Shown here piece after piece: positions 12,391-48,424 of a DNA stretch of 64,000 nt. Below the pieces are notes generated by a model. That model saw only the letters and a list, made by a program, of their open reading frames with translations. It made no database searches and was not told the origin of the DNA. How positions within the stretch are numbered: the stretch's first letter is position 1; each line of letters opens with the position of its first letter. The DNA comes from Acidobacteriota bacterium. Its GTDB lineage: Bacteria; Acidobacteriota; UBA6911; JACQSX01. The translations under genes and the position numbers were made by a program. The stretch covers positions 12,519 through 76,518 of the forward strand of contig DASXQR010000187.1 of assembly GCA_036507075.1 (NCBI GenBank). Reading direction: 5' to 3'.

Positions 12391-12553
12391 ACTGAACCGC
12401 CAAGGCCGCCAAGAACGCTAAGAACAGCGCAAGGGACGGGGCTTAGACTCCGGTGTCAGGTACACAAACTTGAAATGGCGTCAAATTTGCAAACCTGACA
12501 CCGGAGTCTAAGCCCCGTCCCTTGCGCTATCTTGGCGCTCTTGGCGGTTTAGT
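12391..12553. repeat. ACCGCCAAG 9-mer element with perfect 36-bp inner stem
   Basis: agcgcaagggacggggcttagactccggtgtcaggt (12426-12461) is exact reverse complement of 12493-12528; lies between convergent genes. Confidence 0.92.
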
Positions 12554-43908: not shown

Positions 43909-45969
<2,061 letters not shown>

Positions 45970-46040
45970 TCTCAATAATTGTTCACTCTACAGGAGAATT
46001 CGAGAGCGGGGACCATGCGCCAACGACACCCTGGCGCATT

Positions 46041-46149
46041 GTCCCACTCTCCCGCTCTCCCACTCTCCCGCTCTCCCACTCTCCCGCTCTCCCGCTCCCC
46101 CACTCCCCCACTCCCCCACTCCTCCACTCCTCCGCTCTCCCACTCTCCC
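46041..46149. repeat. One-sided pyrimidine-rich octamer array (CTCTCCCR)n
   Basis: About 13 tandem units with no full complementary array nearby. Confidence 0.85.
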
Positions 46150-46220
46150 AATTGAACAATGCCATTCTATCCTGCTTCCATTTGACAGGCCGATAAGGTT
46201 TCCCGTAGGTTGAATTTGAA

Positions 46221-47168
46221 ATGCACGAAGTGACCAGGCTTTTTCAGACGCACGGATTGGTCATCCTGTTCCTTGCGGTCTGGTTGGAAAACATGGGAGT
46301 GCCGCTTCCCAGCTTTCCATTTTTGCTGGGCGCCGGTCTGCTTGCTCACTCCGGTCATAGTTCTCTGCTCTCCGCCGTTTTGACGGCTGCAGCAGCCGCT
46401 CTGATTGCAGACACGGTCTGGTATTACCTGGGGCGCGCCGTGGGACGACGCATTCTGGCATGGATCTGCTTTATTTCCTTGAATCCGGAGAGCTGTGTAA
46501 ATAAGACCGAATCGGCATTCTTGCGCCACGGCCTCCGTTCTTTGCTGGTGGCAAAGTATGTTCCCGGTTTGAACACCATTGCTCCACCCCTTTGCGGGCT
46601 GCTCCACGTCCCGATTGCCAGATTCCTCTTCTACGACTTTGCTGGTTGTATTTTCTGGGCGACGCCCTTTATCGTCGCAGGTTTCTTATTCTCAAAACAG
46701 TTGGAGGCACTGGTCGGTTACCTTGAGCGCTTTGGGAATTTTGCGCTGCTCGTGATTGCTTTGCTGGTTGTCGCGTTTATCGGTTACAAGCTGCATGAGC
46801 GCAGGAAGTTTTACCGGCATCTTCGCTCGGTGCGAATCAAGCCCGAAGAACTGCATCAAAGAATGCAGAGCGGCGAGCCGGTGACCGTAGTAGACCTGCG
46901 AAGCCCGCTGGCATACTCGACTGACCGATTCTCAATTCCCGGTTCCGTCCGCATTTCTCCCGAGGAACTGGAGCGCCGTGCTTCCGAACTGCCGATCGGC
47001 AGCGAGCTGGTCCTGTATTGCACCTGACCAAGTGAAGCGACCAGCGCCAGGATGGCGCGGCGGCTGATGGACAGCGGCGTGCTGCATGTTCGGCCTTTGC
47101 TGGGAGGCTTGGACGCGTGGATTGAAGGAGGTTTTCCGGTGGAGGAGAAGTTGGTGGAGATTCCCTAG
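46221..47168 (+). CDS. DedA/VTT membrane protein fused to rhodanese domain, probable selenoprotein (UGA 47025-47027 = Sec)
   Basis: DedA motifs (GVPLP, AKYVPG); after YCT-TGA the frame continues PSEATSARMARRLMDSGVLHVRPLLGGLDAWIEGGFPVE to TAG 47166-47168. Confidence 0.85.
47036..47066 (+). promoter_or_regulatory. Candidate bacterial SECIS element
   Basis: GCGCCA-GGA-TGGCGC stem-loop (47044-47058), loop 22 nt 3' of the in-frame UGA and starting with G. Confidence 0.65.
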
Positions 47169-47171
47169 ATT

Positions 47172-47524
47172 TGGTCCGTTGTCCGTTGTCCGTGGTCAAT
47201 TGTCAGTTAACGAGTTGCGGGTTTCGGGTCTTCGGTTGTGGATTTCGGGTTTCGGGTTTTCGGGTTGCGGGTTTCGGGTTTCGAGTTGCCGCATTGCCGA
47301 TTTTGCGTCGCCGGGTTGCGGGTTTGGAGTTGCCAAGTTACGGGTTAGAGTTTTTCGGGTTGCGCGGTTTGTTGTTGAAGTCATTAGAAATTCAACTTGT
47401 CAGCTCATTATTTTGAGACTTAATGGGTTTTAAGCTTTCAATGAATCCACGAATCTATCTTCTGAGCTGCAACTTGGAACGCGAAACCCGGCAACTCGAA
47501 ACCCGTAACACGAAAACCCGAAAC
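47172..47524. repeat. Inverted GGGTTTC/GGGTTGC arrays with TTGTCCG lead-in
   Basis: G/T-rich heptamer units left, gaaaccc units right, between convergent genes. Confidence 0.8.
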
Positions 47525-48424
47525 CTATTTTGCTTTGGGATGCGCTTTTCGATAGACGGAGCGAAGCTCTTCGATCGAAACATGCGTGTACTTCTGCGTC
47601 GTCGAAAGACTTTCATGCCCAAGCAGTTCCTGTATCACGCGCAGGTCCGCTCCTGCGTTCAGAAGATGCGTGGCAAAGGAATGGCGCAGCACATGGGGCG
47701 AGATCTTAAGCTTCAGAGAAGCTTCGAGAATGTACTTATCCACCAGCCGCCCGACCGATCTGGGAGTCAACCGGGTCCCGGTTCTGTTTAAGAACAGTGC
47801 GTCCGGAAGCAGCCGTCCCGGCGCAATTCGATTTCTGGCTTTCCAGTAACCGCGAAGCGCCGACTCCGCCTTGGTTCCGAAAGGGATGATTCTTTCCTTT
47901 CGCCCTTTCCCGACCACCCTGACAAACCGTTCGTCAAGCTGAACATCATCTTTTCTCAGGCCGGTAAGTTCGGACACTCGCATCCCTGTCGCATAGAGCA
48001 GCTCAAGAATGGCGCGATCCCTGAGGCCGAATGTCGAACCGGCATCGGGCGTGGTGACAAGAGTCTCCACTTCTGAAAGCTGCAACACGCGTGGAATCCG
48101 TTTTTCTTTGCGAGGCGAAGCGACCAGCTTGGCAGGGTTTGATTGAACGTAACCTTCCTGGTGCAGGAACTTGAAAAAGGAGCGAAGCGTCGCCACCTTC
48201 CTGCCGGCAGTCGACTTCTTCTGATTCCGATCGTGCAGAATTCCCAAAAAAGCGCGGATTGCGATATGGTCGATCCGGCCAGGATCAATGTTCTGCACCT
48301 TCCATTCTGAACACAGGAACTCCTGAAACTGATTCAGGTCACTTCGGTAAGCGCGCAGCGTCTCCGGCGAACAGCCCTTTTCGCCCTCCAGATACTTAAG
48401 AAAGAGCCGCGTTAAAGCACGCAT
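47525..48424 (-). CDS. xerC: Tyrosine recombinase XerC
   Basis: RDRAILELLYATGMRVSEL, GKGRKER, PHVLRHSFATHLL, LLGHESLSTTQKYTH; downstream of trmFO. Confidence 0.92.
   Translation of the reverse strand: MRALTRLFLKYLEGEKGCSPETLRAYRSDLNQFQEFLCSEWKVQNIDPGRIDHIAIRAFLGILHDRNQKKSTAGRKVATLRSFFKFLHQEGYVQSNPAKLVASPRKEKRIPRVLQLSEVETLVTTPDAGSTFGLRDRAILELLYATGMRVSELTGLRKDDVQLDERFVRVVGKGRKERIIPFGTKAESALRGYWKARNRIAPGRLLPDALFLNRTGTRLTPRSVGRLVDKYILEASLKLKISPHVLRHSFATHLLNAGADLRVIQELLGHESLSTTQKYTHVSIEELRSVYRKAHPKAK

Follow-up and report, generated by a model that had tools for sequence, protein, structure and literature searches.

A DedA-rhodanese fusion protein with a predicted selenocysteine residue in Acidobacteriota

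The locus described here raises two questions, namely whether a TGA codon at which an open reading frame ends is a stop or is read as selenocysteine (Sec), and what kind of membrane protein would result from its read-through. The locus lies in a window of 64,000 nucleotides (positions 12,519 to 76,518 of contig DASXQR010000187.1 from an Acidobacteriota bacterium; assembly GCA_036507075.1), to which all coordinates given without a contig name refer. On the forward strand, a reading frame opens with an ATG at 46221 and runs through 268 codons to the motif LYCT, where it meets a TGA (47025-47027); the same frame then continues through 46 sense codons (PSEATSARMARRL...GFPVEEKLVEIP) to a TAG at 47166-47168. 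With the TGA read as Sec (U269), the gene (46221..47168) encodes a protein of 315 amino acids. Both the in-frame TGA and the length of this product agree with what a first-pass annotation of the locus had proposed, and its further suggestion that the 46 codons complete a rhodanese fold is borne out by Pfam. The read-through protein contains a VTT/DedA membrane domain (PF09335; residues 29-154, 46305..46682; 61.4 bits, cut-off 33.9), which is all-helical and well modelled, and a rhodanese domain (PF00581; residues 208-301, 46842..47123; 39.3 bits, cut-off 22.2) that spans the TGA and is interrupted by it under translation table 11. The active-site loop is formed by Cys267-Thr268-Sec269 (47019..47027). 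From 46157 to 47250, the DNA is identical, letter for letter, to a contig of sequencing run X2, which is possibly the source of the DNA. No sigma-70-like promoter was detected upstream of the gene, and no terminator above shuffle level downstream of it.

Reading of the TGA codon

All four components of the Sec machinery for which the first-pass annotation had advised a search are encoded in this genome: selA (529 bits, cut-off 268), selB (380 bits, cut-off 242), selD (347 bits, cut-off 125) and selC, a typical tRNA-Sec that is the sole tRNA with a UCA anticodon among 44. TGA ends 1251 of the 2502 long open frames and is the commonest stop, which indicates a genetic code without reassignment. 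The selD gene (C59:4836-5753) itself contains one TGA and likely encodes a selenoprotein; two other TGA frames of this genome, one FdhA-like (QARV-U-HGP; C157 near 5243, minus strand) and one peroxiredoxin-like (GGW-U-PYC; C88 near 38391, plus strand), presumably do so as well.

Among the best 119 other homologs, 115 have Cys at position 269 (C-x-C-P-[NS]-[ED]), and the homolog motif YCxCPNE.SA given in the first-pass annotation was hence correct; the remaining four, which are the closest ones, end at LYCT. The fusion was found in 53 of the 301 genomes sampled from the phylum (E <= 1e-40), and in 36 of them the best match contains a single TGA. One unpublished genome, G063, is counted in both figures (52 and 35 without it) and in the tally of selA given below, and is excluded from the other counts. 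Two genomes of the same family were added to the sample, giving 37 TGA loci from genomes whose fusions share 32-64% identity. In each of the 37 loci, the TGA is the sole internal stop and is located at residue 269 (the locus in G184 is cut by a contig end 10 codons later). The codon is thus shared with 36 other genomes and is not unique to this assembly, a circumstance that had been named at the outset as one that would speak against Sec. The 23 non-TGA loci, which come from 17 genomes, carry TGC (18), TGT (3), CGC (1) or TCC (1), so that the search for orthologs yielded 21 TGY loci next to the 37 with TGA.

The selA gene is present in 37 of 37 TGA genomes and in three of the 17 genomes with only non-TGA copies (G281, G135 and G157, which keep Cys). 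TGA is never used by the 14 fusion-bearing genomes that lack selA; in the absence of the Sec machinery, Cys takes the place of Sec. A selB gene scored above cut-off in 34 of the 37 TGA genomes; in the others, the match was partial or the genome 63% or 84% complete. The selA tally is weaker than it appears, because selA is common in the phylum (232 of the 301 sampled genomes, far above the 36 carriers of the Sec fusion) and because kin are not independent: at least 13 of the 14 selA-negative genomes fall within one family, f40, in which seven TGA genomes have selA, 14 Cys-type genomes lack it and one Cys-type genome has it. In a quick, unrooted tree (90 rows, 29 database proteins sampled), the TGA/Cys state changes at least four times on starred branches and, at fewest, 10 times overall; since the tree is unrooted, gain and loss are indistinguishable. 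When the phylum of a proteobacterial locus was sampled, 14 of 301 genomes gave a match and a stop was present in none of the 16 matches; seven of ten loci inspected from this phylum could be parsed, all of them CxC. A search of genome contigs for related loci yielded one Cys-type locus only. Second copies of the fusion in G309 (L106) and G197 (L107) have neither Cys nor Sec at residue 269 and read CNR and CSS, respectively.

The machinery, the shared TGA codon and the hairpin kept among relatives (see below) uphold the proposal that UGA encodes Sec at this site, and we consider this predicted decoding of codon 269 very likely. Beyond the TGA, the 46 codons show conservation at the protein level (G295, G296 and W300 in 35-36 of 37 loci), genomes without selA carry Cys and not a stop, and a stop would, according to the structure model, sever the rhodanese fold ahead of its active-site helix. 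These observations make it very improbable that the TGA acts chiefly as a genuine stop, with a 268-residue product as the main form and Sec read-through as a minor event or a selenium-dependent switch, even though Sec insertion in bacteria is inefficient, the 268-residue form is the one found in sequence collections and a DedA-only relative exists. Hardly credible is an altered code in which UGA stands for Cys or Trp, or a TGA that arose by nonsense mutation or assembly error, for which the Cys of the homologs is the sole support: reassignment is effectively ruled out by the use of TGA as a stop together with the tRNA-Sec, and an error or nonsense allele by the same codon in 37 genomes and in at least 61 metagenome fusion loci.

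The SECIS-like hairpin

A hairpin resembling a bacterial SECIS element, GCGCCA-GGA-UGGCGC, is located at 47044-47058 on the forward strand. The first-pass annotation had reported this element 16-31 nt downstream of the TGA; the hairpin is present as described, and its start is at nt 17 rather than 16 (17-31 nt after the TGA). It has a 6-bp stem, a GGA loop closed by an A-U pair, a spacing of 22 nt and a folding energy of -14.6 kcal/mol (40 nt). The bSECIS model demands a loop of 3-9 nt, a stem of 4-16 bp, a spacing of 16-37 nt, a G within the first two loop positions and an energy of -7.5 kcal/mol or lower (PMC13188914), and the hairpin agrees with the model, as quoted there, in all of these respects. 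Taken alone, it stands modestly above chance (z = -2.0; six of 200 shuffles were equally stable), and of 32418 TGA codons taken arbitrarily from open stretches in this genome, 2289 (7.1%) pass a loose SECIS-like rule; a genome scan by motif and hairpin was too noisy for defining the selenoproteome. What exceeds chance in the evidence for this putative element is its conservation across relatives and not the stability of a single hairpin.

This conservation was scored in a fixed register with a 5-nt loop at nt 22-26, a register chosen from the TGA genes themselves. At least three pairs and a G at loop position 2 are found in 37 of 37 TGA genes versus none of the 21 TGY genes; at least four pairs are formed in 33 of the 37, and only three pairs in the other four. 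Synonymous shuffles of the TGA genes retained the hairpin in 15.7 genes on average and in 26 at most (n=2000), against the 37 observed. The Ala codon at +7 is GCC in 36 of 36 TGA genes (background 39%), and the Arg codon at +8 is CGC in none of 36 (background 45%). As judged from these sequences, silent sites in the hairpin region are constrained. The three inner pairs are kept in all 36 aligned rows, yet they are almost invariant, and the covariation score of 0.111 (36 aligned rows) lies above that of shuffles and below that obtained when the partners are slid by +3 (0.137). Part of the hairpin conservation is a consequence of the encoded SARV, which counts against the hairpin argument.

The CxU rhodanese domain, its relatives and its database record

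In a structure model of the fusion (pLDDT 84, pTM 0.76), the membrane domain is helical and is accompanied by a rhodanese domain, which matched 3gk5 in a fold search (Z 16.5; 100 residues at rmsd 1.6). In the model, a strand (262-266) ends at Cys267 and a helix starts at residue 272, placing Cys267 at the usual position of the rhodanese catalytic Cys. Cys267 is present in 354 of 354 aligned family members, residue 269 is not invariant, and profile alignment puts the catalytic Cys at 267 (3tp9, 6pfz) or at 269 (6mxv), depending on the template. Thiosulfate sulfurtransferases carry a CRxGx[R/T] loop pattern; it is absent from the loop of the fusion, which has a conserved Glu272 instead.

The CxU rhodanese is a known type of predicted selenoprotein domain, of which the first-pass annotation made no mention. 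It is catalogued as rhodanese-like selenoprotein form 3 (NF041203, rhodanese_LYCAU) in a table of 119 families (PMC13188914, 2026), and the sequence of its representative TKB26178.1, LYCAUPNEYTSAR (accessible portions of the PMC12013277 supplement; Table 1 of PMC13188914), has the same motif and Sec position as LYCTUPSEATSAR in the fusion. NF041203 is the best NCBIfam match of the fusion (residues 203-310), but it describes a small protein (a 126-position model), whereas the domain considered here sits behind a DedA membrane domain in a protein of 315 amino acids. The fusion scores 84.3 bits against this model and four other Sec fusions score 80.1-94.7; with a cut-off of 115 and a model that covers only residues 203-310, membership in NF041203 proper was rejected. 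The same table contains a rhodanese-type selenoprotein that is likewise fused to another module, NF045694; its motif is UxxxxU with two Sec residues and its partner is DsbD-like, in contrast to the CxU of the present fusion, and NF045694 is not among the NCBIfam matches of the latter. Three stand-alone CxU rhodanese paralogs with the hairpin in the same register are encoded elsewhere in this genome (C69:37409-37741 and C177:34145-34477 on the minus strand; C191:2635-2919 on the plus strand, with a signal-peptide-like N-terminus). A fourth rhodanese paralog (C104:802-1119) reads YCDG and is devoid of a second Cys or Sec.

The fusion also has a known Cys-type counterpart (PF09335 plus PF00581; 'DedA family protein/thiosulfate sulfurtransferase GlpE'; PA1209 in P. 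aeruginosa) of the same architecture and length, with 42-48% identity in the best full-length matches, the same Cys83/Cys92 pair (see below) and a CxC loop. The TGA form differs from it by Sec in place of the second Cys and by the SECIS-like hairpin. The Sec DedA-rhodanese fusion does not appear in the 119-family table of PMC13188914, and a search of mostly open-access literature found no paper that joins selenoprotein, DedA and rhodanese. In the accessible portions of PMC13188914, of the PMC12013277 supplements, of the BSepDB text with part of its supplement, and of the main text of bioRxiv 2022.07.06.499078, the word 'DedA' occurs 0 times. BSepDB or RefSeq may list such genes under a rhodanese label. 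What appears to be new is the predicted combination of a known CxU selenoprotein domain with a DedA membrane domain of unusual residue set, and its wide occurrence; the surprise for specialists is limited, as the catalogues contain the CxU rhodanese domain.

The first-pass annotation had further held that standard gene callers would truncate the protein, and the databases show this to be the rule. Among the best 120 database matches to a profile of the cut-short forms, 109 stop at this codon with [YF]C-x and 11 are full-length CxC proteins; U is shown in none of the 120, in a collection that may not display U. Sec DedA-rhodanese fusions are hence routinely stored cut short, a systematic annotation error that is corrected here. 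Source names among the best matches include Blastocatellia, Candidatus Binatia (HET8564383.1) and Methylomirabilota (HEY7649869.1); for the two accessions, the truncation of the protein was observed and not the TGA codon itself.

A degenerate pattern of TGA plus hairpin retrieved at least 120 stretches from metagenomes; the 80 listed comprise 61 DedA fusions, eight stretches that are cut and 11 others, and five of these 11 carry a different membrane protein. The predicted Sec fusion would extend the bacterial selenoproteome by an integral-membrane architecture, and would do so from soil bacteria rather than from the anaerobes by which selenoprotein catalogues are dominated. Aerobic bacteria are reported to keep selenoproteins only rarely (PMC13188914). 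In five metagenome loci (L143, L154, L163, L167 and L188), a cation/proton antiporter is fused in frame to a CxU rhodanese whose TGA and hairpin follow the same pattern; the two that were scanned belong to PF00999, the Na+/H+ exchanger family. These fusions would represent a second, predicted membrane-transporter architecture among selenoproteins.

The DedA domain and possible roles of the fusion

The DedA domain contains a Cys83-x8-Cys92 pair (46467..46496, forward strand) on two helices, H76-85 and H89-113, with a short, less confidently modelled turn between them. Of 350 aligned family members, a partly redundant set with about 200 clusters at 80%, 348 have both Cys residues, and betaproteobacterial-type Cys forms have them as well; they are absent from nine of ten DedA-only controls and from both stand-alone DedAs of this genome. 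The exception among the controls is a DedA of G007 (L029, G007:C87), a 42% relative that keeps Cys83/Cys92 and the motif KFVPG and ends near residue 209; it is a close relative after loss of the rhodanese domain. The many invariant core residues of the DedA domain include P28, P30, D64, G71, G75, K112, P115 and G116. [quoted passage not shown] Lys112 is found in 351 of 351 family members, and position 118 is S, N, G, T or A, with no Arg among its commonest letters. Glu23 is kept in 322 of 346, and column 32 is I, V, L, A or T versus D or E in the stand-alone DedAs.

Two acidic residues and two basic ones have been tied to the flipping of undecaprenyl phosphate (UndP) (PMC10127716). When these were mapped via the stand-alone DedAs of this genome, and not via YghB itself, the DedA domain of the fusion had neither the acidic residue of PGD/PGE nor either of the arginines. 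With the UndP flippases of COG0586 (UptA, YghB/YqjA, PA4029), the fusion shares the DedA core, the Glu of the first re-entrant helix, Asp64 and the glycines; it differs from them in lacking the second acid, in replacing the two arginines by Lys and Asn/Ser, and in adding the Cys pair and a C-terminal enzyme domain. UptA/DedA models scored 49.8 of 250, 46.6 of 300 and 52.6 of 236 bits, far below their cut-offs, the first two being those of the NCBIfam UptA models; membership in UptA was rejected. The matches returned by sequence and fold searches with the whole protein were all filled by the rhodanese domain, and no solved DedA-domain structure was among them.

Four conserved thiol/selenol positions and the missing UndP-binding arginines suggest a cargo other than the lipid carrier. 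Among the readings considered, the favored one, tentative as a whole, is that the protein acts as an inner-membrane thiol/selenol relay between Cys83-Cys92 and Cys267-Sec269. SelB, together with the downstream hairpin, would with high probability insert Sec at codon 269. Both centres would face the cytoplasm, on the same side of the membrane, if the positive-inside rule is applied to the basic stretches GRAVGRR (71-77) and KLHERRKFYRHLR (190-202). The CxU loop would then carry a sulfur or selenium atom as a persulfide, perselenide or selenenyl-sulfide and exchange it, or electrons, with Cys83/Cys92; such an exchange would link the membrane domain with chalcogen or redox traffic, and the cargo of the DedA domain would be something other than undecaprenyl phosphate.

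The near-invariance of Cys83, Cys92 and Cys267 across the family counts in favor of this relay, as does G197b, a copy in which residue 269 and Cys92 are both lost; the conserved pair also lends plausibility to some coupling of the transporter-like domain to sulfur/selenium transfer, as suggested in the first-pass annotation. Other copies complicate the picture: the DedA of G007 has the pair without a rhodanese domain and G309b keeps it without residue 269, so that a structural or metal-binding role of the pair is conceivable, and the CxU domain, which also occurs alone and on antiporters, needs no such Cys pair. Mean-field coupling across 347 sequences (effective number 194) gave noise and no usable inter-domain contacts, and a complex prediction for the DedA and rhodanese domains of the Cys-type homologs (alignment A4) returned a score of 0.00, which speaks neither for nor against the relay.

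If Sec is inserted, the DedA domain could still be a lipid flippase, for undecaprenyl phosphate or a phospholipid, that is gated by the CxU rhodanese as a redox or persulfide sensor. Rhodanese fusions have been placed in COG0586, with the link between the rhodanese and UndP unclear and the Cys fusion devoid of an assigned function (PMC10127716). The best whole-family models of the fusion are of the COG0586-type DedA/UptA kind, Glu23, Asp64 and the basic Lys112 are kept, and the CxU domain resembles a portable regulator in its occurrence on Na+/H+ (K+/H+) antiporters in five of the 80 listed metagenome loci. We nevertheless regard a gated flippase as rather unlikely, given the low UptA/DedA scores, the missing second acidic residue and arginines, and, in P. 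aeruginosa, the assignment of the UndP role to PA4029 rather than the fusion PA1209, the deletion of which left growth in rich medium unaffected (PMC12893004, in its accessible portion). It is likewise unlikely that the protein is a membrane-anchored, Sec-containing sulfurtransferase in which DedA mainly serves as an anchor and Cys83/Cys92 are structural. The clear rhodanese fold, the stand-alone CxU paralogs and the position of Cys267, usually that of the catalytic residue, are consistent with such an enzyme; the many invariant DedA core residues go beyond the needs of an anchor, and the conserved Glu272 and the loop without the CRxGx[R/T] pattern do not fit it.

A further reading would be a DedA subfamily of chalcogen transporter-reductases, which would pass selenite, polysulfide or related species through a Cys83/Cys92 gate to the Cys-x-Sec centre of the rhodanese. 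We consider this reading improbable; if true, it would constitute a selenium-dependent step of selenium or sulfur uptake that is common in soil bacteria. The Sec fusion provides a handle on the role of DedA-rhodanese fusions in general, since it suggests specific mutants. A dedA gene of Cupriavidus metallidurans has reportedly been linked to selenite uptake. The same species encodes a Cys-type fusion (NZ_CP046333.1, L237:6001-6897) with C-x8-C and YCACP.

The genomic context offers no lead on a substrate, and neighbours are not conserved across the phylum. Clustering of the genes within 1.5 kb of 61 loci revealed synteny at the level of genus or family only and no recurring sulfur or selenium gene. 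In the window, the fusion gene is flanked by an integrase-family gene and by a divergent gene for a DUF255/thioredoxin-domain protein with a CHWC motif (43909-45975, minus strand), which adjoins the fusion in this genome (G000), G001 and G003 only. Low-complexity intergenic repeats lie on both sides of the gene, namely, upstream, a tandem of 8-nt pyrimidine units (46042-46150) and, downstream, TGTCCGT-type and GGGTTTC-type units (47172-47208, 47199-47375 and 47466-47525). The GGGTTTC-type units have an inverted counterpart about 200 nt further on, the genome contains similar micro-repeats at other places (47, 111 and 8 runs), and the repeat unit of 47172-47208 matches many other soil contigs.
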